The notes: a model not told the origin generated them from the letters alone. DNA of 64,000 nt from Bacteroidales bacterium (GCA_021738505.1 JAIPBW010000004.1:8000-71999), one strand, 5' to 3'; positions 27,175 through 49,343 are shown, numbered from the stretch's first letter. Made by a program: numbers and translations.

Positions 27175-27329
27175 AGTCTGGTATCAAATTGACTTTTATT
27201 AACTTTGCTTGCTCGATAATAATAGCATTTGACAACTGGTTAGTGTTTGTCCATAATGCATGATATTGGCACATGCCATAATTATGATCATTCGGATCTA
27301 AACACTGACTTAATAGACAGACATTAGTT

Positions 27330-28982
27330 ATGGTTACGCATCTTTCTATCAAAAACTATATTTTAATAGACGCTCTGGAAATACCATTTTCAGAAGGCCT
27401 GACAACCATTACGGGTGAAACAGGGGCAGGGAAATCTATTTTGTTGGGTGCCATGGACCTGATTTTGGGTGAACGTGCTGATAAAAAGGTCTTACTTGAT
27501 AAAGATAGCAAATGTATCATAGAAGCCACATTTTATATAAAAGGATATGATCTGAAAGACCTCTTTGCAGAATTTGATCTCGATTATGATGATCAAAGTA
27601 TCATCAGAAGGGAATTATTACCATCCGGAAAATCGCGCGCTTTTGTAAATGATACTCCCGTTAAACTTAATGTATTAAAAGCCTTGGGTAATAAGTTGAT
27701 TAATATCCATTCTCAATTTGAAACGTTAACACTTAATCGCTCTGACTTCCAGATGACTGTGTTAGATGATTTTGCTCATAATCAACCCCTGTTTCAAAAA
27801 TATTCCTCGGCTTTTGATGTCTATTTAAAAAGTGAAAACTATTTAAAGGAATTAACGGAAAAAGAAAAAAGTGCCAAAGCAGAACAGGATTATTACAAAT
27901 TCTTGTTTGAAGAACTGGAGAATGCAAATCTGGAAGCGGGCGAGAAAGAAAAACTGGAGAGAGAGTATACACAACTGACGCATACGGAAGATATTCGCCA
28001 GGCATTATACTTTTCAGTGGAAGGGTTGTCCCGCTCAGAAACAAATATATTGGAAGTCCTAAAGGAAATTAATTCAAGACTTGCTGAAGTTTCTGACTAC
28101 CATAAACTGATTAAGCCTATACAACAACGCGTTGAGAGTAGTCATATTGAACTCGAAGATATTGCTGCAGAATTGGAAAATATGGAAAGCGATATTGAAT
28201 ATAGCCCGCAACAACTTGAATATATTCAGGAGCGCCTGGATGTTATATATGCATTAGAGCAAAAACATCATGTGGAAGGAACAGAAGCACTGCTTGAATT
28301 AAAAAATAAGTTCGACAGAAAACTGCAGGATATCGGAACGCTGGAAGAAGATATAGAGACACAGAAAAATATTGTGCAGACAAATAAAGAAAAGGCTGAA
28401 AAACATGCCCTGGAACTCCACCAAAAGAGAGAGAAGAAAGCACCGGAGGTGGCAGAGGCTGTTCAAAATGTCCTTAGCAAATTGAATATGAGCGATTCCA
28501 AAGTGGTTGTAGATGTTCAGAAACAAGAAGAACTTAATGAATATGGTTTGTCGCGCGTGGAAATATTATTTTCTGCAAATAAAGGACATTCGCCCGGAGC
28601 GATCAAAAACGTAGCCTCAGGCGGGGAATTATCCAGGTTGATGCTGGCTATAAAATCCATTCTGTCAGACAAGAATATTTTACCCACTATTATTTTTGAT
28701 GAAATTGATAGCGGTGTTTCCGGCAATGCAGCTGTCAAAGTGGGGCATATCATGCATAAGATGAGCCAAACAATGCAGGTTATTGCCATAACACATCTTC
28801 CGCAAATAGCAGCCAAAGGCAAAGACCATCTGAAAGTTTATAAGTATGACCACAATGGCCGGACCCGGACAGATATTAAAAAATTAAATCCACAGGAAAG
28901 AGTTGAAGAAACAGCCTTGATGATCAGTGGAGAGCATCAAAATGAAAACGCTCTGAAAACAGCCAGGCAGCTCATAGGGTAA
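27330..28982 (+). CDS. recN: DNA repair protein RecN
   Basis: 550 aa with Walker A GETGAGKS, a long coiled-coil, the signature ASGGELSRLMLAIK, and Walker B IIFDEIDSG. Confidence 0.9.
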   Translation: MVTHLSIKNYILIDALEIPFSEGLTTITGETGAGKSILLGAMDLILGERADKKVLLDKDSKCIIEATFYIKGYDLKDLFAEFDLDYDDQSIIRRELLPSGKSRAFVNDTPVKLNVLKALGNKLINIHSQFETLTLNRSDFQMTVLDDFAHNQPLFQKYSSAFDVYLKSENYLKELTEKEKSAKAEQDYYKFLFEELENANLEAGEKEKLEREYTQLTHTEDIRQALYFSVEGLSRSETNILEVLKEINSRLAEVSDYHKLIKPIQQRVESSHIELEDIAAELENMESDIEYSPQQLEYIQERLDVIYALEQKHHVEGTEALLELKNKFDRKLQDIGTLEEDIETQKNIVQTNKEKAEKHALELHQKREKKAPEVAEAVQNVLSKLNMSDSKVVVDVQKQEELNEYGLSRVEILFSANKGHSPGAIKNVASGGELSRLMLAIKSILSDKNILPTIIFDEIDSGVSGNAAVKVGHIMHKMSQTMQVIAITHLPQIAAKGKDHLKVYKYDHNGRTRTDIKKLNPQERVEETALMISGEHQNENALKTARQLIG

Positions 28983-37485: not shown

Positions 37486-38295
37486 TTACTGTTTGCAGGC
37501 ACTAACCGTAATCGAAAAAATCCCTTTGTCTTCGTTGGTAAAATCTTTACGTTTATTTTCCGGCACGTACTTTTTTAGTATTTTCTCCGGAAGTTCAATT
37601 CGTTTTTGTTTATGTACCTTTATGGTATTAAAACCGGTCTGGCGAATGATTTCCAAATATTCCTCCATTTGTAAAGCGCCGGCTATGCAGTTGGTATACA
37701 TTTCAGCATCTTCACGCAAATTTTCCGGTAAGTCCCCTTTGATCACTACATCGGACACGCAAAAGTGTCCTTTCGGCTTCAATACGCGTTTTATTTCAGC
37801 AAAAGCTCTTGTTTTATCCGGTACAAGATTCAATACGCAATTGGATATAACTACATCAAACTGAGCAGCTTCAAAAGGCATCTTTTCAATATCTCCGGCA
37901 AGAAACCTTACATTTTTTAGCCCCAGTTTTTGACTATTCTGACGAGCCTTTGTAATCATTTCTTCAGAAAAATCGAGCCCCGTTACATGGCCTGCTTCAC
38001 CGACAACAGATCGTACCACAAAACAATCATTACCGGCGCCACAGCCCAGATCGAGCACATGTTGTCCTGTTTGGAGTCCGGCATATTCCGTTGGAACGCC
38101 GCATCCTAATCCCAGGTCGGCATCCGGCTGATAGCCCTGAAGGTTTTGATATTCATTGCCAATCATGTTAATTTCCAGATTGTCCCCACAGCAACTTGAT
38201 GGGCCGCAACAAGGTGATTGAGCCTTTTTTTCGCTTTGCCGGGCAATTTGTGAATATTTCTCTTTTACGAAATTCTTTATGCTTTGTGTACTCAT
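37486..38295 (-). CDS. arsM: arsenite S-adenosylmethionine methyltransferase
   Basis: 269 aa with SAM motif VLDLGCGAGND and the conserved ArsM cysteines in GLGCG, SNCVLNL and YTNCIAGA, plus an N-terminal CCGPSSCCG. It overlaps arsC by 4 nt. Confidence 0.85.
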   Translation of the reverse strand: MSTQSIKNFVKEKYSQIARQSEKKAQSPCCGPSSCCGDNLEINMIGNEYQNLQGYQPDADLGLGCGVPTEYAGLQTGQHVLDLGCGAGNDCFVVRSVVGEAGHVTGLDFSEEMITKARQNSQKLGLKNVRFLAGDIEKMPFEAAQFDVVISNCVLNLVPDKTRAFAEIKRVLKPKGHFCVSDVVIKGDLPENLREDAEMYTNCIAGALQMEEYLEIIRQTGFNTIKVHKQKRIELPEKILKKYVPENKRKDFTNEDKGIFSITVSACKQ

Positions 38296-38717
38296 AATTC
38301 TGGTTTTATTTTATCGATGTATAATTTATAAAAAGTCGTTTCAATTTTATCGCGAACCCGCCGGAATTCACTCCGGATAAACTCTTCAGACCCGGTAGCG
38401 TGAGATGGGTCTTCAAAGCCAATATGCATTCTGTGATTTACTTTTCCTATAAATACAGGACATTTTTCATTGGCATCATCGCAAACTGTAATCACATAAT
38501 CCCATATTTCGTCTAAATATTTATCAACCATAGAAGGGTTGTGCTTGCTGATGTCGATATCCTTTTCTTCCATTACTTCCACAGCTTTTGGGTTTACGGT
38601 ATCAGCGGGCTCCGTACCTGCCGAAGCGACCTGTAGATTGTTGTCGAAAGATTTTAAAAAGCCGTGTGCCATCTGACTGCGGCAACTGTTTCCGGTGCAA
38701 AGAATTAGTATTTTCAT
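38292..38717 (-). CDS. arsC: arsenate reductase, thioredoxin-coupled LMW-PTP type
   Basis: 141 aa with the P-loop LCTGNSCRSQMA and the downstream Cys pair in ITVCDDANEKCP, as in S. aureus/B. subtilis ArsC. Confidence 0.85.
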   Translation of the reverse strand: MKILILCTGNSCRSQMAHGFLKSFDNNLQVASAGTEPADTVNPKAVEVMEEKDIDISKHNPSMVDKYLDEIWDYVITVCDDANEKCPVFIGKVNHRMHIGFEDPSHATGSEEFIRSEFRRVRDKIETTFYKLYIDKIKPEL

Positions 38718-38738
38718 ATCTTGGTTTTTAGTGTATTA

Positions 38739-38768
38739 AGTGGATTAAGTTGACTAAGTTAATCCACT
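38739..38768. repeat. hairpin repeat (GATTAAGTTGA family) between four-helix-bundle gene and arsC
   Basis: AGTGGATTAA (38739-38748) pairs perfectly with TTAATCCACT (38759-38768) across a 10-nt loop. It contains GATTAAGTTGA at 38743-38753. Confidence 0.7.
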
Positions 38769-38771
38769 CAA

Positions 38772-39137
38772 TTACTTACTCTTTTGTTTCTTAAGGTAAA
38801 ATATATATCCATTCATTAATTTTAAACATTGCTCATAGGTATTTCTATAATTACTTAATTGATTTTCTGTGATAAATTCTTCATCTCTGGCACAAATTAA
38901 ATGCTCCAGAGTTTCGGTTAAAGATCCGCGTGCTTGTCTGCAAAACTGTATGTTTTCCTGATAATGATATCTTCCATGTCCTTCGGCAATATTAGCTGTT
39001 ATAGAGCGGCTTGAACGAAGTATCTGGTCTGCGATCCTGTATTTTTCATCGTTTGGAAATGTCTTCACAAGGTTTGATATCTCAATCCTGAAATTCCGGC
39101 ATTCTTTGTAAAGTTCCAAATCTTCAAAATTTCCCAT
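38772..39137 (-). CDS. four-helix-bundle protein (TIGR02436 / 23S rRNA intervening-sequence protein family)
   Basis: 121 aa. FEDLELYKECRNF...QILRSSRSITANIAEGHGRY...ARGSLTETLEHL matches the family hallmark (sQl.RA..SI..NIAEG ... A.GS..E). Confidence 0.85.
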   Translation of the reverse strand: MGNFEDLELYKECRNFRIEISNLVKTFPNDEKYRIADQILRSSRSITANIAEGHGRYHYQENIQFCRQARGSLTETLEHLICARDEEFITENQLSNYRNTYEQCLKLMNGYIFYLKKQKSK

Positions 39138-39149
39138 ATGCTATATTTT

Positions 39150-39228
39150 TTGGTTAAGTTGATTCGGTTGATTTTTGAAATTACTAAAATATATTCAATT
39201 ACTCAATCAACCCAATCAACTTAATCAA
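39150..39228. repeat. long hairpin repeat (GATTAAGTTGA family) filling the arsR / four-helix-bundle spacer
   Basis: TTGGTTAAGTTGATTCGGTTGATT (39150-39173) is complementary to AATCAACCCAATCAACTTAATCAA (39205-39228) at 22 of 24 positions, with a 31-nt loop. The right arm abuts the arsR stop codon (39229-39231). Confidence 0.75.
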
Positions 39229-39561
39229 TCAACACACCATATTTTCATCAATATCAATGTTTTCAAAGAAGTTTTCGGACAGGCTTTTCAGCTCTTTTAC
39301 TTTTCCGGGATTCAGACAATAGTTGGTTTTGGTTCCGGTAACGTGCCCCTGAATAAGGCCGGCATTTTTCAGTTCTTTTAGGTGCTGGTTCACTGTAGTT
39401 CGCCCCAATGGAAGTTCTTTGCTGATATCGCCCGAAATACAGGTTTTAATCTCCGCCAGATACTTCAGGATTTGTATTCGTGCAGGATGTGCCAATGCTT
39501 TGAATAAATAAGCGCACTGTTGTTCTTGTTTATCGAAAAGTTCACTTTTTGCCAGTACCAT
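39229..39561 (-). CDS. arsR: ArsR/SmtB family transcriptional regulator
   Basis: 110 aa with a winged-helix core (FKALAHPARIQILKYL...TVNQHLKELKNAGLI). Cys residues lie at positions 16, about 40 and about 83, and at the C-terminus. Confidence 0.8.
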   Translation of the reverse strand: MVLAKSELFDKQEQQCAYLFKALAHPARIQILKYLAEIKTCISGDISKELPLGRTTVNQHLKELKNAGLIQGHVTGTKTNYCLNPGKVKELKSLSENFFENIDIDENMVC

Positions 39562-39604
39562 AGCTATCAGTTTTTATATAATGTATCGTTTTACATGTCG
39601 AAAA

Positions 39605-40648
39605 TTATTCTGCAATATTTTTTCCTTGCTGTCTGTTGGCGAAAGCCACCAGTGATAACATCACCGGAACTTCAACCAATACACCTACTACGGTGACCAA
39701 TGCGGCCGGGGAGTTCAGCCCGAACAGAGTAATGCTCACAGCTACAGCTAATTCAAAGAAATTGCTGGCGCCAATCATGGTGGCAGGTGCAAGTACACGG
39801 AAAGGCAGTTTTATTTTCTTTCCAACAAACCATGCCAGAAAGAAAATAAAGTATGTTTGAATGACCAGTGGTATTGCTGCAAGCAAAATAATCAATGGAT
39901 TGCTTAGAATGTTATTTGACTGAAAAGCGAAAAGAAACACCAAAGTTACGAGCAGGGCAACGATGCTAACGGGTTTAAGTTTAGGTAGAAATTTATTTTT
40001 AAACCATTCTTTCCCTCGTGCTCTGATCATCACATGTTGGGTTATTACGCCTGCTACCAGAGGGATGACCACAAAAATGATTATGCTGGCTAATAATGTG
40101 TTATAAGGAATTGAAATATTGGTGATTCCCAGTAAAAGTCCTACAATTGGAATGAATGCCACCAGAATAATCAGATCGTTTACGGATACTTGTACCAGCG
40201 TATAGTTTGGGTCTCCGTCTGTCAGGTAAGACCATACAAACACCATTGCCGTGCAGGGCGCAGCCCCCAGAATGATGGCGCCGGCGATATATTCTTCAGC
40301 CATAGAAGGATCGATCCATGCCTGATAAATATGTGAGAAGAAAAGCCATGCGAAAAAAGCCATGGAAAATGGTTTGATCAGCCAGTTGATGATCAAAGTC
40401 ATGATTACTCCTTTGGGTTTTTTACCCACGTTTTTTATGCTGGAGAAATCAATTTGCAGCATCATAGGATAAATCATTAGCCAGATTAAAATTGCAATCG
40501 GGATATTCACCCTGGCGATCTCCAGTTCGCTGAGTGCTTCCATGCTGTCTCCGGCATAATAGCCCAGTGCAACACCGGCAATAATTCCTAAAGCAACCCA
40601 TACCGTGAGGTATCTATCGAAAAAACTCATTGCTTTCTTTTGTGCCAT
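39605..40648 (-). CDS. acr3: ACR3 family arsenite efflux transporter
   Basis: Start moved to Met 40648 ([14 protein letters not shown]). It has 10 TM helices and the conserved GAAPCTAMV motif. Confidence 0.9.
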
Positions 40649-40740
40649 TATATTTATCGTTTTCAATCCTTGACGCAAATATACGTCAAAAAAATTAACT
40701 GACGTAAACATACGTTAAATATTTTCAGGAAAACTATATA

Positions 40741-42320: not shown

Positions 42321-42779
42321 CTAGTTGCTCATCGCATTAACAGATTTCATTGCACTAATCTGAATAGGTGTTTCATGGGCCAGGTTATCGCTAACAGGAC
42401 AGCGATCTTCTATTTGTTCTACCCATTTATTCAGCGTCTTTTCATCGGCATCGGCATCGGCATGGATTTTCACCTCAATTCCTTTAAAGCCGGCTCTTTC
42501 TTCTGTCGATTTCCCCATAAATCTGGCCGGATCCAAATTTCCATTCATTTCCATACTCATTCCGCGAAGTGTAAATCCCATTTCTTTCGCTACCAGATGT
42601 CCAACAACTGTCAAACAACCAGATAAGGCTCCCAATACATATTCTACAGGATTTGCTCCTTCATCGGTTCCCCCAAGATTTTGAGGTTCATCAATGGTCA
42701 TTTTGAAATTACGCGCTTTAACTTCTGTTTGTGTTGCGTTTTTGCTTTCTGCTTTTATGCTTACATTCATATCTTTCAT
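42321..42779 (-). CDS. OsmC family peroxiredoxin-like protein
   Basis: 152 aa with two conserved Cys in the contexts ALSGCLTVV and IEDRCPVS, as in OsmC/Ohr-fold proteins. Confidence 0.8.
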   Translation of the reverse strand: MKDMNVSIKAESKNATQTEVKARNFKMTIDEPQNLGGTDEGANPVEYVLGALSGCLTVVGHLVAKEMGFTLRGMSMEMNGNLDPARFMGKSTEERAGFKGIEVKIHADADADEKTLNKWVEQIEDRCPVSDNLAHETPIQISAMKSVNAMSN

Positions 42780-42881: not shown

Positions 42882-42996
42882 GTGTTTAAACCCTAAATAT
42901 TCGAGATCAAAGCCTGTTCTGCATACTTGTGTATATGAGGATTTAAAATTTGAGCAACAACGTAGCTATCGGACATTATGGGCAAAAACTATTTAG
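42882..42996. repeat. copy B of a duplicated noncoding segment (partner at 47245-47400)
   Basis: GTGTTTAAACCCTAAATATTCGAGATCAAAG...CGTAGCTATCGGACATTATGGGCAAAAACTATTTAG aligns end-to-end with 47245-47400. Both ends match at roughly 80 percent and the centre is variable. Confidence 0.6.
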
Positions 42997-43083
42997 AACT
43001 ATTCCTGATTGGTCTTACCTCTCAACAATTGCAGGGAAGTACTGTTATGTATAAAGTTTTACACAAAAAATAATTTATTATTT

Positions 43084-43557
43084 ATGAAAACAGGAATATT
43101 TACAATTATGGCATTTCTGCTGCTCGGACTTTCATCATGCGAGAATAGCCAGAAAAAAAATACAAGTGATAAATATTATTTCAGCAAAATGGTTGAAGGA
43201 GATTTTGAGGAGGTTACTACCAAAGTTAAGACTACACTAAAGGAGGAGGGTTTTAGTGTTATTACTGAAATTGATATGGCAGAAACGCTCAATGGTAAAA
43301 TTGAAGATGCAAGTATGCAGCCATACCGCATTTTAGGTGCATGCAATGCACAATATGCCTATACAACTATTCAGCAGGAAGAAAATATCGGCGTATTTTT
43401 ACCTTGTAAATTGATAATTAAAAAAGCAGATGATAACAAAACAGAGGTGATTGCTGTTAACCCGGAAAATTTGATGAAAATGCTTGGGAATGATGAGTTA
43501 AATTCCATTGCTGCCGAAGTTAGCGATAAATTCAAAAATGTTCTCAAAAAACTATAG
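43084..43557 (+). CDS. DUF302 domain lipoprotein
   Basis: Start moved to Met 43084 (MKTGIFTIMAFLLLGLSSC, lipobox). The core EGFSVITEIDMAETLNGK...YRILGACN...LPCKLII is typical of DUF302. Confidence 0.7.
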   Translation: MKTGIFTIMAFLLLGLSSCENSQKKNTSDKYYFSKMVEGDFEEVTTKVKTTLKEEGFSVITEIDMAETLNGKIEDASMQPYRILGACNAQYAYTTIQQEENIGVFLPCKLIIKKADDNKTEVIAVNPENLMKMLGNDELNSIAAEVSDKFKNVLKKL

Positions 43558-43945
43558 CTGCAGCGTATTTTTTAATGAACATTTCCTACTTGTTTGAAAT
43601 CAACGCAAATTCATAAATCCTATTTGAAAGGGAATTTACAGCCCGGAAAATATTCATAATATTTTCGATAAGAGCAATTTGCTGCTTTATAATTTGCATG
43701 TTTTAGATTTGGGGGATAGAAGACAGTTTTAAGAGCGAGTAATGAGTTGGATTATTATAAAAGTTATCCAAAGCAAACATTTAACCTGTATTATTCATGC
43801 AATAAGTTTAGATCAGATGCAAGGCGAAAATATAGTAATCTATTTCAAAGCCGGCCGCGTATTTATCATGTCTTAAGCATTTTAATCAAGGAGGGTTTAA
43901 ATACAAGCGTAACAAACAAATTAAGCATTAAAGACAAAATGTTGA

Positions 43946-44203
43946 TTATTGACTGATTAACATTTTACTTACCGTCTCTGTTGATGGGATATATCCCCGG
44001 GCCGCTACTTTTCCATTAATAATCAAAGTAGGTAATATCCATGTTGGATATTTTTGCATTTCTTCAAGATCATTTATTATTTGTATTTCTTCTGATATGC
44101 CTAATTCTTTTAATATCGCTTCCATCCGGCTGATCATGCGGCGGCATTTGCCGCACTTTTTTGGCGGACATAGCAATTTAATTTCCGGATTCTTTACGTC
44201 CAT
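43946..44203 (-). CDS. small thioredoxin-fold protein (Thioredoxin_3 / redox-active disulfide protein 2-like)
   Basis: 85 aa with redox motif KCGKC and LPTLIINGKVAARGYIPS, matching the TPALVIDGKV..G..P pattern of this family. Confidence 0.7.
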   Translation of the reverse strand: MDVKNPEIKLLCPPKKCGKCRRMISRMEAILKELGISEEIQIINDLEEMQKYPTWILPTLIINGKVAARGYIPSTETVSKMLISQ

Positions 44204-44255
44204 ACATTTCCATCGTTACTTTTTGAACGTTTCAGCGAAGTTTTATGTTTGTTCT

Positions 44256-44645
44256 TTAAGAACAGCAGCTAGAACAGCCACATGCATCCGGCAATATGTT
44301 TTCATCAGGAAGATTTTCTGCTCTCCACTGAACCAATCCGCCATCCAGATTGGCTACATGTTTAAATTTCTTAATATTAAGCAAGTTGGCTACTTTGGTT
44401 CCTCTTTCTCCAATGGAGTCCATGGTAATGAGTAATATATCCTCTGGCAAATGCTTCAAGTTGTCTATTATTTCTGTCATGGGATAATTTTTTACATTCT
44501 CCAGATTGACCCGTTCTACTTCGCATTCTTCTTTTTCACGGACATCTATAAGCATGGCCTTGTCTTCTTTTAACAAGTTAAATGCTTCAACGGCTGAAAT
44601 ATGCCGGACTCCGTCTAAATGAAATTTTTGATGATTTGGTTGCAT
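44256..44645 (-). CDS. rhodanese-like domain protein with Asp at the catalytic position and a Cys-rich C-terminal tail
   Basis: 129 aa with rhodanese-fold landmarks (MLIDVRE..E, LDGGLVQW). The active-site loop reads ITMDSIGERG (Asp where Cys is expected), and the protein ends in ACGCSSCCS. Confidence 0.75.
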   Translation of the reverse strand: MQPNHQKFHLDGVRHISAVEAFNLLKEDKAMLIDVREKEECEVERVNLENVKNYPMTEIIDNLKHLPEDILLITMDSIGERGTKVANLLNIKKFKHVANLDGGLVQWRAENLPDENILPDACGCSSCCS

Positions 44646-44667
44646 AAACTGTTGTTTGATTTTGTGG

Positions 44668-44744
44668 TTGAGCTGATTAAGTTGAATAAGTGATAAGTCT
44701 ATTAATCAGTTCTTTCAGTTATTCAATCCTCTCAATTAACTCAA
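44668..44744. repeat. solo imperfect hairpin of the GATTAAGTTGA family between thioredoxin-like and rhodanese-like genes
   Basis: Contains GATTAAGTTGA (44675-44685). Pairings are TTGAG/CTCAA (44668-72 / 44740-44), CTGATTAA/TTAATCAG (44673-80 / 44702-09) and TTGAATAA/TTATTCAA (44682-89 / 44719-26). The last two are mutually exclusive. Confidence 0.6.
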
Positions 44745-44749
44745 TAAAT

Positions 44750-44998
44750 CTAACTTTTTGCCTCGTCATTAAGCCATTTGGCTAATGTAGTTTTTACCGG
44801 AATTTTTCCCTGCGAAAATACTTTTCCATTAACTACAAGTCCTGGCGTAAGCATTACACCGTAATCACCAAACCTATTCATATCGGTTACTTTTTCAATA
44901 TTGGCTTCAATATTGTTTTCTTTCACAACTTCGTTGCATAAATTTTCAAGTTTTATGCAGTTTGGACATCCAGATCCTAATACTTTAATATCTAACAT
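44750..44998 (-). CDS. thioredoxin-fold redox-active disulfide protein 2 family
   Basis: 82 aa. MLDIKVLGSGCPNC...YGVMLTPGLVVNGKV is the canonical pattern of this family. Confidence 0.8.
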   Translation of the reverse strand: MLDIKVLGSGCPNCIKLENLCNEVVKENNIEANIEKVTDMNRFGDYGVMLTPGLVVNGKVFSQGKIPVKTTLAKWLNDEAKS

Positions 44999-45027
44999 AA
45001 TTGATCATTTTAAAGGTTTCTAAATAA

Positions 45028-46347
45028 TTAAAAAAAAGCTCCGTATATTAATCCTGATGCTGTTGCCATAATCACAACCAAAGCAATGTATACTAATGTT
45101 TTTTGGGTTCCGATTACGCCACGTATGACCAACATATTGGGCAACGACAGGGAAGGGCCTGCCAGCAGCAATGCTAATGCCGGTCCTTTGCCCATACCGG
45201 CTCCGATTAAACCTTGCAGAATAGGCACTTCGGTCAGTGTGGCAAAGTACATGAAAGCTCCTACGATGGAGGCAAAAAAGTTAGAGAAAACAGAATTGCC
45301 ACCTACGAGATTTACAACCCACTCATTCGGAATAATTCCGGGCATGTCTGTGTTTCCGTGTGTAGATCCCAGCAAAAACCCTGCTGCCAGAACACCGATA
45401 GCCAGTAAAGGCATAATTTGTTTTGTGAAATCCCAGGCAGATATCGTCCATTCCTTATTGTTCGGATCCCGCTTGTCTAGCAACGTGACCACACTTAATC
45501 CGGCAATTCCCACAATCATAGGGACTTGAGGGTTCGTGCTTACTATGCCTGCAATAGCTGTTACTACTGTTGCTATGGCTACATGCTGCCATTTGATTTT
45601 CAAAATGGCAATTAAGGAATAGATCAGCAACAATCCAAATACGGAAGTAATGTGCCATTTATTAGCCCATATCCAGTACCAGACGCCTTCAGTTACACCA
45701 TCAGCCGGTTTTCCCCAGTTAGCAAAAACCAAGATTAACACCAACGTAAAAAAGTGAAGGGCTGTTTGCCATAATGGACGTTTTTCTTCCGTTTCAGGAA
45801 AATTAAGCTGTTCGTCTTTTTTAGCTTTTTCTTCTTTGCGATAGATCAGTGACATGACTGATCCGATGACAATAGCAAACACAACAGCACCAATAATCCT
45901 GGCTACGCCCATTTCAAAACCTAAAATGCGGGCGGTAAGAATAATGGCCAGAATGTTAATAGCCGGACCGGAATACAAAAAAGCGATAGCGGGGCCCAGG
46001 CCTGCTCCACGCTTGTGAATACTGGAAAACAACGGCAAAATAGTACAGCTACATACGGCCAGAATGGTTCCCGATACGGATGCAATCGAATAAGCTACCC
46101 ATTTTTTAGCTTTAGCACCGAAATATTTCATCACAGCGCCTTGACTGACAAATACTGCTATGACACCTGCTATAAAGAATGCCGGCAACAAGCATAAAAT
46201 GACATGTTCCTGCGCATACCATTTGGCCAAATCGAACATGGCCAAAATAGCTTCTTTAAACCGGGTGCTTTCAACCGGCAAATAATAGGCAAGAACAAAT
46301 ATTGCTATGATCCATCCCAGTATTTTAAATTCTCTCTTTTTATCCAT
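45028..46347 (-). CDS. UPF0718 / ArsP-type permease
   Basis: 439 aa with about 10-12 TM helices and a vicinal Cys pair in VCSCTILPLF, resembling the CSC motif of ArsP-family permeases. It is adjacent to Thioredoxin_3 genes, as is usual for this family. Confidence 0.7.
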   Translation of the reverse strand: MDKKREFKILGWIIAIFVLAYYLPVESTRFKEAILAMFDLAKWYAQEHVILCLLPAFFIAGVIAVFVSQGAVMKYFGAKAKKWVAYSIASVSGTILAVCSCTILPLFSSIHKRGAGLGPAIAFLYSGPAINILAIILTARILGFEMGVARIIGAVVFAIVIGSVMSLIYRKEEKAKKDEQLNFPETEEKRPLWQTALHFFTLVLILVFANWGKPADGVTEGVWYWIWANKWHITSVFGLLLIYSLIAILKIKWQHVAIATVVTAIAGIVSTNPQVPMIVGIAGLSVVTLLDKRDPNNKEWTISAWDFTKQIMPLLAIGVLAAGFLLGSTHGNTDMPGIIPNEWVVNLVGGNSVFSNFFASIVGAFMYFATLTEVPILQGLIGAGMGKGPALALLLAGPSLSLPNMLVIRGVIGTQKTLVYIALVVIMATASGLIYGAFF

Positions 46348-46398
46348 TTCAAAATATTTTTATATTTCGCTAATCGACGAAATGTGTTCACAAATTTT

Positions 46399-47100
46399 TT
46401 AAAAATATACTATAGCGATCAGATAAATCCCTGCAACAATAAATATAACCGAAACAACACGTCTAAACCATATTTCAAATATTTTAAGATTATTATATAA
46501 CTTGCCGACTCCCGAAACCGTATAAGCTATCAGGTATGCAAAAATGATAACCGGAATACCTGTAGCAATGGCAAAGATGACGGGCAAGAATAAACCGGAA
46601 GCACTGCCAATGGTCATAGGTATTAACATGCCAAAATACAATACTCCGCTATAAGGACAGAAAGCAAGTGCAAAGAGTATCCCTAATAAAAGAACATCAA
46701 GATAATTGTGCTTGTTTTTATTTTGGAATTTTTGTGTTAGCCTGCTCATGCCCGGGAATTTAATTTTTAAAATATCTAACATCAAAATACCTATCAAGAC
46801 CAGGATTGGTCCGGCAATTTTTTCCCCGTATTGCTGAAACCAACCTGAAATTTTCATTTGGTCTGCACCGATAAAAATGATGACAGCCAACGAAGTATAG
46901 GCAACAGCACGTCCCAGGGTATAGATAAGTCCATTGATGAAAACCCGTCTTTTGTTTTCAACATCTTTACCTATAAAACCTATAGCTGTGATGTTAGTAG
47001 CCAAAGGGCAGGGGCTGATCGCTGTCATAAGCCCAAGCATAAATGCAGTAACCACCGGCAATGAACTATTGCTCATTACATTTTGCAAAAACTCTTCCAT
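46399..47100 (-). CDS. CcdA/DsbD-core-like membrane protein (DsbD_2 type; from memory, named ArsG family in some annotations)
   Basis: 233 aa with six TM helices. One Cys lies in TM1 (AISPCPLA) and one in TM4 (LAFCPYSG), the arrangement used by CcdA/DsbD for transmembrane thiol-disulfide transfer. Confidence 0.65.
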   Translation of the reverse strand: MEEFLQNVMSNSSLPVVTAFMLGLMTAISPCPLATNITAIGFIGKDVENKRRVFINGLIYTLGRAVAYTSLAVIIFIGADQMKISGWFQQYGEKIAGPILVLIGILMLDILKIKFPGMSRLTQKFQNKNKHNYLDVLLLGILFALAFCPYSGVLYFGMLIPMTIGSASGLFLPVIFAIATGIPVIIFAYLIAYTVSGVGKLYNNLKIFEIWFRRVVSVIFIVAGIYLIAIVYF

Positions 47101-47124
47101 ATATTTAATTTATTGAGATGTTGG

Positions 47125-47206
47125 TGTGCTGATATTTTGGACCGTAGATTTTGAATTGACAGAAAGGCTAATGTCCACATAATCAAATTATAGGCATATC
47201 AGCACA
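47125..47206. repeat. 11-bp perfect inverted repeat within the intra-operon spacer
   Basis: TGTGCTGATAT (47125-47135) is the exact reverse complement of ATATCAGCACA (47196-47206). The intervening 60 nt has no ORF. Confidence 0.6.
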
Positions 47207-47219
47207 TCAAATCATCGGC

Positions 47220-47402
47220 TAATTAGTGTCTGTCTATAAAGTAAGTGTTTAGTTCATAATGTTCGAGTTCAAAGTTTACTCCGCATTTATCGGGGGCTTT
47301 CGAAGTTTTTTATCATCAGGAGTCCCGATTGGAACATCGGGATGACTGTGATAAAAAACGAGCATAACGCAGAAATCGGACATTATGGACAAACACTAAT
47401 TA
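47220..47402. repeat. copy A of duplicated noncoding segment, bounded by 15-bp inverted repeats
   Basis: TAATTAGTGTCTGTC (47220-47234) is complementary to GACAAACACTAATTA (47388-47402) at 14 of 15 positions. The interior 47245-47400 is homologous to 42882-42996, and an extra hairpin TCCCGAT/ATCGGGA (47323-47342) is present only in this copy. Confidence 0.6.
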
Positions 47403-47813
47403 ATTAATCAACGGGTCGATTTTGTCCTTGATAATTTGCTTTAGCTTATCCGGATTGCTTTTAGCATTCATAAAAGCCTCATTAGTAATATTGATTTTTT
47501 TATCACCACTAACAATTAATAATGCTTGTCCTGGAGCCCCGACTTCTTCTGCTTTCTGTTCTCCTTCAGAGCTATCAAGGCTATAAACCTCAAAATTCAC
47601 ATCATCACCATACAATTCTTTAACAGCTTTTTCCGATTCGGACTCTACAGCCCGGCAGGTTGCACATCTGCGTGCGTTGTGGAAATAGTATACAAAAACT
47701 TCTTCCGCTTGCTTTACTGATGTATTTTTACTTTCATTATTCTTTTCTCCTGAGCAAGAAGCTGTAATGCACAAAAGAAATACACCTAAGGTTAAATACT
47801 TAATTACCTGCAT
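47400..47813 (-). CDS. thioredoxin-like CxxC lipoprotein (from memory, possibly the ArsF-family annotation)
   Basis: Track ORF 47400..48023 is trimmed to Met 47813 (MQVIKYLTLGVFLLCITASC, lipobox) because the 5' extension overlaps the well-supported 47819..48058 gene. It has redox motif RCATC after VFVYYFH. Confidence 0.55.
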   Translation of the reverse strand: MQVIKYLTLGVFLLCITASCSGEKNNESKNTSVKQAEEVFVYYFHNARRCATCRAVESESEKAVKELYGDDVNFEVYSLDSSEGEQKAEEVGAPGQALLIVSGDKKINITNEAFMNAKSNPDKLKQIIKDKIDPLIN

Positions 47814-47818
47814 AATAA

Positions 47819-48058
47819 TTATTGGTTTTGGGTTAATAATTCCTGAAGTTCTTTTTGTGACGGAACACGGCCTGAAAACACTACTTTTTCGTTTATGACT
47901 AATCCTGGCGTTTTCATAACACCATATTCCATTATCTTCATAATGTCTTCTTCTTTGGTTACATTGGCATCCATCCCTAGCTCTGTAACTGTTTCTCTTG
48001 TTAATTTTTCTAATGACTTGCACTTAGGGCAGCCGGTTCCTAAAATTGTTATTTCCAT
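47819..48058 (-). CDS. thioredoxin-fold redox-active disulfide protein 2 family
   Basis: 79 aa. MEITILGTGCPKC...YGVMKTPGLVINEKV has the same pattern as the protein at 44750..44998. Confidence 0.8.
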   Translation of the reverse strand: MEITILGTGCPKCKSLEKLTRETVTELGMDANVTKEEDIMKIMEYGVMKTPGLVINEKVVFSGRVPSQKELQELLTQNQ

Positions 48059-48079
48059 AATTACAATTTATTTATTGGT

Positions 48080-48394
48080 TTATATTGTTCTATTCTCGTC
48101 AAAAAGCTTGTAAAACAAGGTTTTTGCTTTTTCCCAGTTTTCTGTGTTTAAGCAATATTTTATGTAAGGAGGTTCAATTTCTCCCTGAATTAAGCCTGCA
48201 TATTTCAGTTCTTTGAGATGTTGCGAGAGAGTCGAACGTCCAACCGGTAATTCATCTACCAGATCGCCACTGTAGCAACAGGCATTCATCTGGGAGAGCT
48301 TTTGCAGGATATAAAGACGCACAGGATGACCCATTGCTTTGGCAAGCTTAGCCATTTCTGTTACTTCTCGCGATATTGTTTCATTCTTATCCAT
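48080..48394 (-). CDS. arsR: ArsR/SmtB family metalloregulator with vicinal Cys pair
   Basis: The track start 48400 is TTG, and the ATG at 48394 (MDKNETIS) is preferred. It has a winged-helix core (HPVRLYILQKL...TLSQHLKELKYAGLI) and ACCYSGDL at the position of the ELCVCDL metalloid site of plasmid R773 ArsR. Confidence 0.8.
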   Translation of the reverse strand: MDKNETISREVTEMAKLAKAMGHPVRLYILQKLSQMNACCYSGDLVDELPVGRSTLSQHLKELKYAGLIQGEIEPPYIKYCLNTENWEKAKTLFYKLFDENRTI

Positions 48395-48692
48395 GATCAA
48401 TTATCTATATTGTTGTTTCGCAAAATAACGAAATGATATCTGAACAACCAAATTTTTTTTGGATTTTTTTGTTTTAATTCGATCATCCGAATGATAAGCT
48501 TACCGGAGGTTTTTTATTTTGAAATAATAAAAAGCTTCTAACTATCAATGTTTAACAACCGATCACGGAATTATTATTCAGAAAATTAATATGTGATTAA
48601 GCTCTGAATTGACCACATATTCTTATCTTTATCTCCAATAAGAGTAGGTTTTTTTTAAAAGACGATATCACATTTAATTTAGTGTTTGATAA

Positions 48693-49343
48693 ATGACTCA
48701 TAAAATTACTTCAGAAAAAAGATTACATCCGGAGATTGTAGCAGTGCTATTTACCGGCTTATTGAAGTTTCCCATGATGGATTGGCTGAACTACCGGGCT
48801 TTCTATATCGTTGGAGTGATTTTTTTCTGGACTTATTTTATATATCGTAGTTATAAGAATGATCCAAAAGCACTAGAGCGATGGGGAATACAGAAAAAAA
48901 ACTTCCGTATTTCCATGTGGTCCTTATTGCCTTTTGCATTGATTGCAATACCTGCGATCTTATTTTATGGATGGCAAAATGATACGGTTTCTTATAATTG
49001 GCATTTACTACCGATATTAATTCTTTATCCCGTCTGGGGGACATTTCAGCAATTTATTGTTGCCAGTCTGGTAGCTGGCAATTTAAAATATAGTTCGGGA
49101 GCTCAGCTTAATGATTCCGGGATTATATTGTTTGTTGCCGCTTTATTTGCTTTGATGCACTCTTCTGATTGGGTTTTGGCTGCCTATGTGTTTGTTATGG
49201 AAGTATTCTTTTTATGGATCTTTCTACGATGGAAAAATTTATGGGCATTAGGAATCTACCATGGGATTGTTTCTGCTCTCTTTTTATTTTATGTTTCCGG
49301 GCGTGACTTATTCCAGGAATTGTTTACTGTTTTTAATGCCTGA
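48693..49343 (+). CDS. multi-TM protein resembling a CPBP (CAAX/Abi) intramembrane protease but with Gln-Gln in place of the catalytic Glu-Glu
   Basis: 216 aa with about 6 TM helices. WGTFQQFIV sits where CPBP motif 1 (EExxxR) lies, FALMHS fits motif 2 (FxxxH), and IYHGIVS fits motif 3 only partly. Confidence 0.35.
   Translation: MTHKITSEKRLHPEIVAVLFTGLLKFPMMDWLNYRAFYIVGVIFFWTYFIYRSYKNDPKALERWGIQKKNFRISMWSLLPFALIAIPAILFYGWQNDTVSYNWHLLPILILYPVWGTFQQFIVASLVAGNLKYSSGAQLNDSGIILFVAALFALMHSSDWVLAAYVFVMEVFFLWIFLRWKNLWALGIYHGIVSALFLFYVSGRDLFQELFTVFNA

Follow-up and report, generated by a model that had tools for sequence, protein, structure and literature searches.

The eight genes at positions 43946 to 48394 of the window (the whole 64,000-nucleotide stretch that we analyzed, taken from a Bacteroidales metagenome-assembled genome) represent a Bacteroidales copy of a known, widespread arsenic-resistance cluster, arsR-arsE-arsF-arsG plus a Cys-motif permease. 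The best explanation of the locus, to which we assign a probability of about 0.6, is an ArsR-controlled arsenic-island cluster that combines an ArsE-to-ArsG-to-ArsF thiol relay with permease efflux and an accessory tail. That tail, a rhodanese/third-thioredoxin pair, is the sole undescribed part of the cluster. An earlier note on this DNA reported eight co-directional minus-strand genes; all eight ORFs are present, and their cysteine motifs are real. The same note found no match to a characterized system, which does not hold for the core: arsE, arsF, and arsG pass the NCBIfam models for the ArsE family, ArsF, and ArsG, and the order arsR-arsE-arsF-arsG-permease is shared by nearly all the 80 Bacteroidota loci sampled and is annotated in RefSeq, where the same cluster is already named in Fulvitalea and Prevotella. 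A Prevotella nigrescens mobile element carries arsF-arsG-trx-permease-arsC-acr3. The description of the gene set as new is thus correct for the rhodanese/third-thioredoxin tail but not for the five-gene core, which is already annotated; the note had named the ArsF and ArsG families correctly.

Families were assigned from Pfam gathering scores and curated NCBIfam cut-offs, and every gene exceeded its Pfam gathering score except that for the lipoprotein (PF00085; 22.0 versus 23.5 bits). arsE (47819 to 48058; minus strand, like all genes discussed here) encodes a 79-aa Thioredoxin_3 protein with a GCPKC motif, which scored 114.9 bits against TIGR00412 (MTH895/ArsE family; cut-off, 62) and 102.8 bits against Pfam Thioredoxin_3, and which matches PDB entry 1ILO (MtH895; E = 7e-15). 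Its CxxC is present in 80 of 80 orthologues; because it has neither a signal peptide nor a hydrophobic segment, ArsE is predicted to be cytoplasmic. arsF (47400 to 47813), whose ATG at 47813 lies 5 nt past the preceding stop, encodes a lipoprotein with a YFHxxRRCxTC signature (here RCATC) that scored 85.6 bits against the ArsF model NF040494 (cut-off, 60) over residues 38 to 133. We observed an N-terminal hydrophobic segment plus lipobox Cys in 74 of 81 ArsF sequences and the CxxC in all 81, with an invariant His and Arg-Arg adjoining it. The AF2 model (pLDDT, 84.5) has only thioredoxins or PDI domains as its top Foldseek matches. ArsF is predicted to be an exported thioredoxin-fold lipoprotein. 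arsG (46399 to 47100) encodes a CcdA/DsbD-core membrane protein (SPCP and FCPYS motifs) that scored 309.4 bits over its full length against the ArsG equivalog model NF040495 (cut-off, 200) and 73.9 bits against Pfam DsbD_2; its match to CcdA (5VKV) is remote (E = 1e-3). Cys31 in helix 1 and Cys148 in helix 4 are conserved in 76 to 77 of 77 sequences. ArsG has six hydrophobic segments, and its K/R-rich loops (35 to 58 and 114 to 135) are consistent with an N-out, C-out topology.

How these three proteins work together is where the published family names and the anatomy diverge. In 2019, Chen, Zhang, and Rosen reportedly gave ArsE and ArsF the task of reducing the nitro group of aromatic arsenicals and ArsG that of efflux rather than electron transfer. 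According to this reading, ArsE and ArsF would reduce the nitro group of trivalent roxarsone or nitarsone, ArsG would export the aminophenyl arsenical, and the ArsP_1 permease would be a second organoarsenical exporter. The NCBIfam models, passed above cut-off here, are named accordingly ("nitrophenyl compound nitroreductase subunit ArsF" and "aromatic aminobenzylarsenical efflux permease ArsG"), and RefSeq gives these names to the same cluster. However, ArsE is predicted to lie inside and ArsF, with its conserved export/lipoprotein signal, outside, and therefore the two would not be expected to come together as one soluble enzyme. Each is a plain thioredoxin fold that lacks a flavin- or nicotinamide-binding domain, ArsG has the architecture of a two-cysteine CcdA, and synthetic nitroaromatic arsenicals are no obvious selective agent in the habitats from which the cluster comes: it is common in metagenome-assembled genomes from salt-flat soil and tar biofilm, and isolates carry names that point to springs, salt lakes, and sediments. 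We consider nitroreduction by ArsEFG doubtful in this cluster. The anatomy of ArsE, ArsG, and ArsF appears to fit a cytoplasm-to-periplasm thiol relay better, and a thiol-disulfide relay from ArsE via ArsG to ArsF is the most likely arrangement; it would hold a dedicated periplasmic dithiol reduced to handle thiol-reactive arsenicals outside the cytoplasm. The earlier note had proposed such a relay coupled to efflux of a thiophilic substrate; the anatomy supports it, beside a Cys-motif efflux permease, and the direction of electron flow and the substrate, like the inducer and the transcript structure, are inferred.

The same cysteines could instead carry the arsenical itself. In the Mer system, a metal-sensing regulator accompanies a periplasmic CxxC protein (MerP), a membrane protein with essential cysteines (MerT), and a cytoplasmic CxxC domain at the N terminus of MerA. 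By analogy, an arsenical might pass from the CxxC of ArsE to the membrane cysteines of ArsG and on to the CxxC of ArsF, or take the opposite course, and the poly-cysteine rhodanese might serve the permease as an ArsD-like chaperone. This arrangement would reconcile the naming of ArsG as a permease with its CcdA fold; the layout of a cytoplasmic CxxC, a Cys-bearing membrane protein, and a periplasmic CxxC matches MerA-N/MerT/MerP, the His and Arg-Arg that adjoin the ArsF CxxC are invariant, and the CGGC(C/S)GC tail of the rhodanese is kept although its catalytic Cys is lost. Against it, we know of no CcdA/DsbD-family protein that moves a metal(loid), and the two membrane cysteines of ArsG fall one short of the three sulfur ligands favored by As(III), though two would suit methyl- or aryl-As(III). 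We regard a metalloid conduit as unlikely.

The regulator gene, arsR (48080 to 48394), encodes an ArsR/SmtB-family repressor (Pfam HTH_5, 40.7 versus 22 bits) that falls slightly below the NCBIfam HTH_metalloreg cut-off (52.3 versus 55 bits). All 72 of 72 orthologues keep Cys39-Cys40 (CCYSGDL) and Cys81; Cys40 of its ACCYSGDL motif aligns with Cys32 of E. coli ArsR. A TTTCG-N8-CGAAA palindrome (box 1; 48416 to 48433) lies 21 nt upstream of the arsR ATG. A second copy (box 2; 46365 to 46382), overlooked in the earlier note, lies in the arsG-permease spacer, 17 nt upstream of the permease ATG. Two such sites occur in the 64-kb window versus 0.08 expected. In related loci, the core TTCG-N8-CGAA is found upstream of arsR in 63 of 72 (0.06 expected), and in 34 loci the same core precedes the permease gene. 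The half-sites covary, being TTTCG/CGAAA in 21 loci and GTTCG/CGAAC in 36. Across 961 kb we counted 170 sites, 151 of them upstream of arsR, arsE, or permease genes. The Bacteroidetes −7 box (TAnnTTTG) abuts the left operator arm in 24 of the 36 GTTCG-class loci; an exact −7 box is absent from both operators in the window. Conservation of this kind strongly supports the palindrome as the operator at ArsR's own promoter. The core of the operator proposed earlier therefore stands, but its nesting within outer TGTTG...CAACA arms does not: these are asymmetric (one abuts the core, the other is about 10 nt away) and unconserved in relatives. The three-cysteine ArsR-type repressor would bind the palindromes ahead of both arsR and the permease gene, and a trivalent arsenical would release it.

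Gene order in the 80 Bacteroidota loci sampled argues for the core as a conserved unit and for its link to arsenic. Of 77 loci, 74 have arsR and arsE upstream of arsF; downstream of arsF, arsG is found in 68 of 69 and an ArsP_1-type permease gene likewise in 68 of 69 (54 encoding the 439-aa kind and 14 a shorter kind). The conserved unit is the five-gene core, the rhodanese/Trx_3 tail being separable. In the window, acr3, arsR1, an IVP cassette, arsC (LMWP type), and arsM (37486 to 40711; Pfam SBF, HTH_5, 23S_rRNA_IVP, LMWPc, and Methyltransf_31) lie on the same strand, with acr3-arsR1-arsC-arsM about 3 kb from the cluster. Canonical ars genes (arsC, arsM, or acr3) share the locus in 36 of 80 cases, and eight loci have arsC, acr3, or arsM placed after the same operator, in the interval from this arsR type to arsE.

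These linkages bear on whether the cluster might instead be a general stress regulon for thiols, persulfides, or other soft metals (Hg, Cu, Sb, Te, or Se) that merely resides in an arsenic island. Weak, sub-threshold matches link the regulator with BigR, CmtR, and TsoR, and the permease with the SO_0444 (Cu/Zn) and SaoE families, and the genes flanking tail-module relatives include Sulf_transp, extra rhodanese, OsmC, and TauE genes. Such a role is nonetheless very improbable, given the eight loci in which arsR of the same type stands immediately before arsC, acr3, or arsM, with arsE-arsF-arsG next, the frequency of canonical ars genes, and a palindrome that occurs almost solely before genes of this cluster. 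The earlier reading of an ArsR-headed, metalloid-linked cluster is thus supported.

The eight genes may not form the single operon first described: the operator is present twice, the arsF-arsG interval holds a strongly folding repeat, and 104 nt separate the rhodanese gene from the gene preceding it. arsE, arsF, and arsG are neighboring and co-directional in an ars context, with a repeat-filled gap between arsF and arsG (47101 to 47399) that measures exactly the 299 bp given for the noncoding insert in the earlier note. A MITE-like palindromic repeat (47220 to 47402) with 23-nt terminal inverted repeats and an inner hairpin sits at the arsF stop codon; the 311-nt stretch that holds it (47095 to 47405) folds at −88.5 kcal/mol (z = −8.1). 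Relatives of the repeat occur elsewhere in the window (27240 to 27330 and 42944 to 42991) and in three other loci, and in one independent assembly the break falls within it. Beside it lies an empty hairpin (47121 to 47210), whose arms, TTGGTGTGCTGATAT and ATATCAGCACATCAA, form a 15-nt inverted repeat that is 93% complementary. These arms match the arsF-arsG gaps of three other loci, two of which share such arms with a fourth whose gap contains an intact PF05635-like ORF; by sequence match, the empty hairpin belongs to the type found flanking cassettes with an IVP gene in the arsF-arsG spacer of other genomes. We considered whether the 299-bp insert was a lost gene and rejected this, its content being the MITE-like repeat and the empty hairpin. 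Because the folding repeat lies between arsF and arsG, arsG may be uncoupled from the arsR promoter. A first unit would consist of arsR-arsE-arsF, the repeat insertion, and arsG.

A second unit would comprise the permease and its Trx_3 partner. The permease (45028 to 46347; 439 aa) scored 243.2 bits against Pfam ArsP_1 (threshold, 32.3) and, measured against that model, carries roughly 110 additional residues as an insertion; Cys52 and Cys99-Ser-Cys101 are conserved in 55 of 56 sequences. It falls below the NCBIfam equivalog cut-offs for SO_0444 (114 versus 300 bits) and SaoE (109 versus 325 bits), and the NCBIfam scan yielded no match to an ArsP-specific model. More than 120 clusters are at least 80% identical to it, every one named just "permease." The gene for the second Trx_3 protein (44750 to 44998; GCPNC; TIGR00412, 93.5 bits) follows the permease gene here, and a Trx_3 gene does so in five related loci, which suggests that its product is the usual permease partner. 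The invariant Cys-Ser-Cys would expel a thiophilic trivalent arsenical.

The tail begins with a pseudo-rhodanese bearing a poly-cysteine C-terminal tail (44256 to 44645; Pfam Rhodanese PF00581, 37.6 versus 22.2 bits). As the earlier note recognized, it is of the inactive type: the catalytic position is Asp (MDSIGERG) instead of Cys, and therefore the protein is not an active sulfurtransferase. An alignment of 19 relatives has the motif MD[ST]xGERGTK and the tail ILPxxCGGC(C/S)GC, with Asp at the catalytic position in all but the most distant, which has Cys. The protein is rare, with only 29 clusters found. The third Trx_3-like protein (43946 to 44203; PPKKCGKC; Pfam Thioredoxin_3, 53 bits) is under the TIGR00412 cut-off (52.2 versus 62 bits); its gene follows the rhodanese gene in six related loci, and it appears to be a constant partner of the pseudo-rhodanese. 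In relatives, the rhodanese/Trx_3 module follows a second ArsR-type gene, which the window does not have; the arrangement points to a separable module of separate origin. We propose that the module is accessory, the poly-cysteine tail probably binding or passing on the thiophilic substrate and the Trx_3 protein keeping the tail reduced. Because sulfur-transport genes (YeeE/YedE type) adjoin the module in relatives, its role could lie in sulfur chemistry rather than arsenic.

Compared with known systems, the locus resembles ArsEFG of Shewanella putrefaciens 200, a likeness judged via family models rather than the Shewanella sequences: the same three families (TIGR00412, NF040494, and NF040495) are adjacent and co-directional behind arsR. 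It differs in that the ArsP_1 CSC permease and the second Trx_3 protein are constant companions, a repeat element parts arsF from arsG, a pseudo-rhodanese/Trx_3 pair follows, and the predicted compartments are unfit for a joint soluble nitroreductase. With the CcdA/DsbD relays (thioredoxin to CcdA to ResA, CcsX, or a TlpA-type protein), it shares a six-helix core with Cys in helices 1 and 4, a predicted cytoplasmic thioredoxin-like donor, and a predicted exported thioredoxin-fold CxxC acceptor. In contrast to those relays, it is controlled by ArsR and resides in arsenic islands rather than cytochrome c maturation loci, its donor is a small Trx_3 protein of its own in place of the housekeeping thioredoxin, and the similarity to CcdA itself is, as noted, remote. 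Castillo and Saier (2010; PMC2963123) pointed out the triad formed by CcdA and thioredoxin with redox-active-disulfide-protein-2 in ars operons and suggested that the CcdA homologue transfers electrons across the membrane; by genome context, this is the same triad and the same suggestion. Their survey, however, covered eight cases in seven organisms and tied the triad to ArsC, whereas here the triad is seen in hundreds of genomes across Bacteroidota, accompanied by a regulator, an operator, and a permease of its own.

The permease shares Pfam ArsP_1 membership and the Cys-Ser-Cys motif with Campylobacter jejuni ArsP, SaoE, and SO_0444, for which the CSC motif has been described as a common hallmark, and a small thioredoxin-like gene lies beside the permease gene, as in the SaoT-SaoE pair. 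Unlike these proteins, the window permease, with its greater length and insertion, belongs to its own very tightly conserved Bacteroidota subfamily. Finally, MerP, MerT, and the MerA N-domain would offer the same three-compartment cysteine layout, encoded together under a metal-sensing regulator, but their folds and families are unrelated to those of ArsE, ArsG, and ArsF, and the likeness is one of analogy only.

The eight co-directional, minus-strand genes that the earlier note described were all recovered by an ORF check of the window, and Pfam confirmed the family assignment of every one: arsR (48080-48394); a 79-aa Trx_3 protein with a GCPKC motif (47819-48058); a lipoprotein with RCATC (47400-47813); a DsbD_2 protein with SPCP and FCPYS (46399-47100); a 439-aa ArsP_1 permease with VCSCTILP (45028-46347); a second Trx_3 protein, with GCPNC (44750-44998); a rhodanese (44256-44645); and a third, Trx_3-like protein with KCGKC (43946-44203). 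Intergenic gaps, in gene order from arsR, are 21, 5, 299, 51, 29, 104, and 52 nt. The window lies on a 77.9-kb contig of a Bacteroidales MAG deposited at NCBI, and its permease and rhodanese show 100% identity to proteins in this record. The first Trx_3 protein matched the NCBIfam MTH895/ArsE family (114.9 bits; cutoff, 62), and the two proteins likened in the earlier note to ArsF and ArsG scored above the cutoffs of those models (ArsF, 85.6 bits against 60; ArsG equivalog, 309.4 bits against 200). As all three matches are to curated models, the cluster opens with arsR-arsE-arsF-arsG. The permease is matched by a single family model, the broad Pfam ArsP_1; it scored under the cutoffs of both the NCBIfam SO_0444 and SaoE models, a PDB sequence search returned nothing beyond chance matches, and a plasmid search gave one distant match.

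A profile built from ArsF homologues found relatives at >557 places in a collection containing one genome per species. We surveyed the neighborhoods of the best 80 of these loci, almost all from Bacteroidota, by six-frame phmmer with the window's proteins. Both arsR and arsE lie upstream of arsF in 74 of the 77 loci with sufficient flank; arsG lies downstream in 68 of 69, and an ArsP_1-type permease follows arsG in 68 of 69 (54 of the 439-aa kind and 14 of a shorter kind). The arsR-arsE-arsF-arsG-permease core is thus kept as a unit in nearly all of the Bacteroidota loci surveyed. In eight loci (L006, L008, L011, L040, L050, L051, L053, and L056; L numbers denote related loci from other genomes or assemblies), arsC, acr3, or arsM is found between the window-type arsR and arsE, and 36 of the 80 loci contain at least one of arsC, arsM, and acr3. 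RefSeq annotates the Fulvitalea axinellae cluster as ArsR, thioredoxin, ArsF, ArsG, and permease; in Prevotella nigrescens F0103, the order is ArsR-like, ArsF, ArsG, thioredoxin, permease, ArsC, and ACR3, next to mobilization genes. A 2010 survey had already proposed transmembrane electron flow for the triad of ars operons that includes a CcdA homologue (PMC2963123). Given the curated names, the recurring order, the RefSeq annotation, and that survey, the core is known and named, and the earlier note's view that the combination matches no characterized system does not hold. The arsE-arsF-arsG-permease set is present in several hundred Bacteroidota species, human oral Prevotella included, usually beside classical arsenic genes. 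One full Bacteroidota-type cluster (L042, contig JBKHIH010000012.1) carries the label Thiohalospira (Gammaproteobacteria), which could reflect a binning error or horizontal transfer.

While arsF and arsG nearly abut in most loci surveyed, they lie 299 nt apart in the window. We considered a lost gene or a hidden RNA here and rejected both, because the gap consists of two repeat insertions. The first is a palindromic, MITE-like element with 23-nt terminal inverted repeats (47220-47402), placed exactly at the arsF stop codon; the stretch containing it (47095-47405) folds at −88.5 kcal/mol (z = −8.1), and L001, another assembly of this organism made independently, breaks within the element. The window has related copies at 27240-27330 and 42944-42991, and three other genomes each have one (L002, 4058-4207; L014, 7177-7347; L005, 6141-6331). 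Members of this palindromic repeat family are ∼90 to 185 bp long, with terminal inverted repeats TAATTAGTGTYTGTC..., and all window copies are intergenic. The second insertion is an "empty" hairpin (47121-47210), whose arms match the arsF-arsG gaps of L003, L021, and L037; in L027, an intact ORF of the 23S rRNA intervening-sequence-protein (IVP) type sits between such arms, which are common to L003 and L021. An Rfam scan of 43600-48800 at an E value of ≤1 gave no match. In ars operons, genes of the IVP family (PF05635) occupy intergenic spacers as cassettes: inverted repeats flank both the window IVP gene (38772-39137; repeats at 38735-38759 and 39201-39225) and that of L027 (8458-8790), and L002, L003, L008, and L067 carry an IVP-family cassette between arsG and the permease gene.

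The best-supported new point concerns the operator. Of the nested palindrome proposed upstream of arsR, the inner part, TTTCG-N8-CGAAA, is real: 63 of 72 loci have its core, TTCG-N8-CGAA, no more than 130 nt upstream of arsR, compared to 0.06 after shuffling. Relatives do not conserve the outer TGTTG/CAACA arms, which are also asymmetric, and we therefore rejected the nesting. Two symmetric versions exist, TTTCG/CGAAA in 21 loci, including the window, and GTTCG/CGAAC in 36, in 24 of which the left arm directly adjoins a Bacteroidetes −7 box (TAnnTTTG). The fetched loci, 961 kb in total, contain 170 core sites: 63 precede arsR, 54 lie between arsR and arsE, 34 precede the permease gene, and 13 are located elsewhere. 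The window holds exactly two boxes (0.08 expected), at 48416-48433 and, inside the arsG-permease spacer, at 46365-46382. Scans of the cluster region for σ70 promoters and intrinsic terminators yielded background levels, and the single exact TAnnTTTG there is intragenic. Three cysteines of the regulator are invariant, namely Cys39-Cys40, within CCYSGDL, and Cys81; Cys40 aligns with the residue that we take to be Cys32 of E. coli ArsR, and relatives with solved structures are distant. From conservation, we infer both ArsR binding at this putative operator and the inducer. Such a conserved operator makes the regulon definable by sequence and could serve to find more members.

About 3 kb further along on the same strand lie acr3, a second arsR, the IVP gene, arsC (LMWP type), and arsM (37486-40711), whose proximity makes the whole stretch an arsenic island. 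Neither window copy of the TTCG-N8-CGAA box falls in this canonical ars cluster, which is thus probably under another operator. The ArsR encoded there is closest to the one located mid-cluster in relatives. On the opposite strand, a DUF302 gene adjoins the arsEFG-type cluster in the window (43009-43557, plus strand), as in L002 and L005.

In ArsE, nothing precedes the first strand of the fold, no hydrophobic segment is present, and the CxxC is invariant. ArsG gave a match to CcdA (5VKV) that is remote yet specific. Of its six hydrophobic segments, the first and the fourth each carry one invariant cysteine, and the protein has no other invariant ones; loops rich in K/R (35-58 and 114-135) would place both termini outside. 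Of 81 ArsF homologues, 74 have a hydrophobic segment and a lipobox cysteine at the N terminus; others, in a separate alignment (n = 27), have what look like plain signal peptides. In ArsF, the motif YFHxxRRCxTC is invariant, and modeling confidently predicts a thioredoxin fold with CxxC at the start of helix 1. This layout is shared with the relay that runs from thioredoxin through CcdA to a periplasmic thioredoxin. That ArsE and ArsF jointly form a soluble nitroreductase is hard to square with it, since the two are predicted to reside in different compartments and neither contains a flavin or nicotinamide domain. From this anatomy we favor a thiol relay of ArsE, ArsG, and ArsF, so that the earlier note's interpretation of such a relay in an ArsR-headed cluster fits, although not its novelty. 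A role for the CcdA-like gene in cytochrome c maturation was rejected, given ArsR control and the arsenic-island and mobile-element context. The biochemical role of the arsE-arsF-arsG set reportedly rests on one heterologous study of Shewanella genes. With ArsE predicted inside, ArsF outside, and ArsG between them, the nitroreductase-subunit and efflux-permease names now spreading through automatic annotation are questionable, and the compartment predictions open the way to simple experiments.

The rhodanese belongs to a family of 29 clusters. It was rightly called inactive-type with a Cys-rich tail: Asp replaces the catalytic Cys, and the C terminus ends in a conserved ILPxxCGGC(C/S)GC. Among the several relatives whose contexts we inspected, most lie downstream of a permease-Trx_3 pair and a second ArsR-type gene (L082, 6735-7067; L084, 5185-5565; L088, 4667-4999; L089, 1641-2021; L091, 4101-4481). 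This regulator, of 110 or 126 aa, is closest to the window's other ArsR and, in both sequences read (L082 and L084), has a cysteine pair at or near its C terminus; the window lacks it in this module. The genes that come in between differ: DUF1573, a pair of YeeE/YedE-type Sulf_transp genes, a further rhodanese, or C_GCAxxG_C_C. In most contexts, the rhodanese gene is followed by a Trx_3 gene of the TrxC type, and this in several by OsmC. In the window, the DUF302 gene on the other strand precedes OsmC (42321-42779, minus strand), and the OsmC of L082 is 91% identical to it. A close rhodanese homologue (>80 bits) is found in only 5 of the 48 loci with ≥5 kb of downstream sequence. The set of three thioredoxin-like proteins and a rhodanese thus does recur among close relatives, although there it consists of two modules joined together. 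Our guess is that the rhodanese binds or hands over a thiophilic substrate via its tail. Small and unstudied, this poly-cysteine pseudo-rhodanese family is tied to arsenic loci. Bacteroidales ars loci also contain further genes with a rhodanese domain (L010, 11492-11896; L017, 11725-12162; L047, 13332-13751); one has the catalytic Cys and a CGCGCSC tail, and two lie between arsR and arsC in canonical operons.

Cys52 and the Cys-Ser-Cys of the permease are kept in 55 of 56 orthologues, and the permease is ≥80% identical across >120 protein clusters, compared to only 45 to 65% for ArsF; this is an unusually strong constraint for a protein called merely "permease." A bolder reading, which we consider unlikely (perhaps one chance in seven), is that ArsE, ArsG, and ArsF, instead of making up a nitroreductase and a pump or simply relaying electrons, would form a Mer-like Cys-to-Cys conduit through which a two-coordinate organoarsenical (methylarsenite, for example) crosses the membrane, with the poly-cysteine pseudo-rhodanese, maintained in reduced form by its own Trx_3, as a new type of arsenic chaperone feeding the Cys-Ser-Cys permease. 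If so, a CcdA-fold protein would have a role in metalloid transport.

The window system is a Bacteroidota arsR-arsEFG-permease cluster that has two copies of the operator, contains a repeat insertion, and carries a pseudo-rhodanese/Trx_3 add-on lacking a regulator. Three results are of use: the operator that defines the regulon, the argument from compartments against current functional names, and the small arsenic-linked rhodanese family. Like SaoE, SO_0444, and ArsP permeases, whose common hallmark is Cys-Ser-Cys, the window permease has this motif, and as SaoE pairs with a thioredoxin-like gene, it lies beside a Trx_3 gene; the cluster refines a known system and is no new kind of system.
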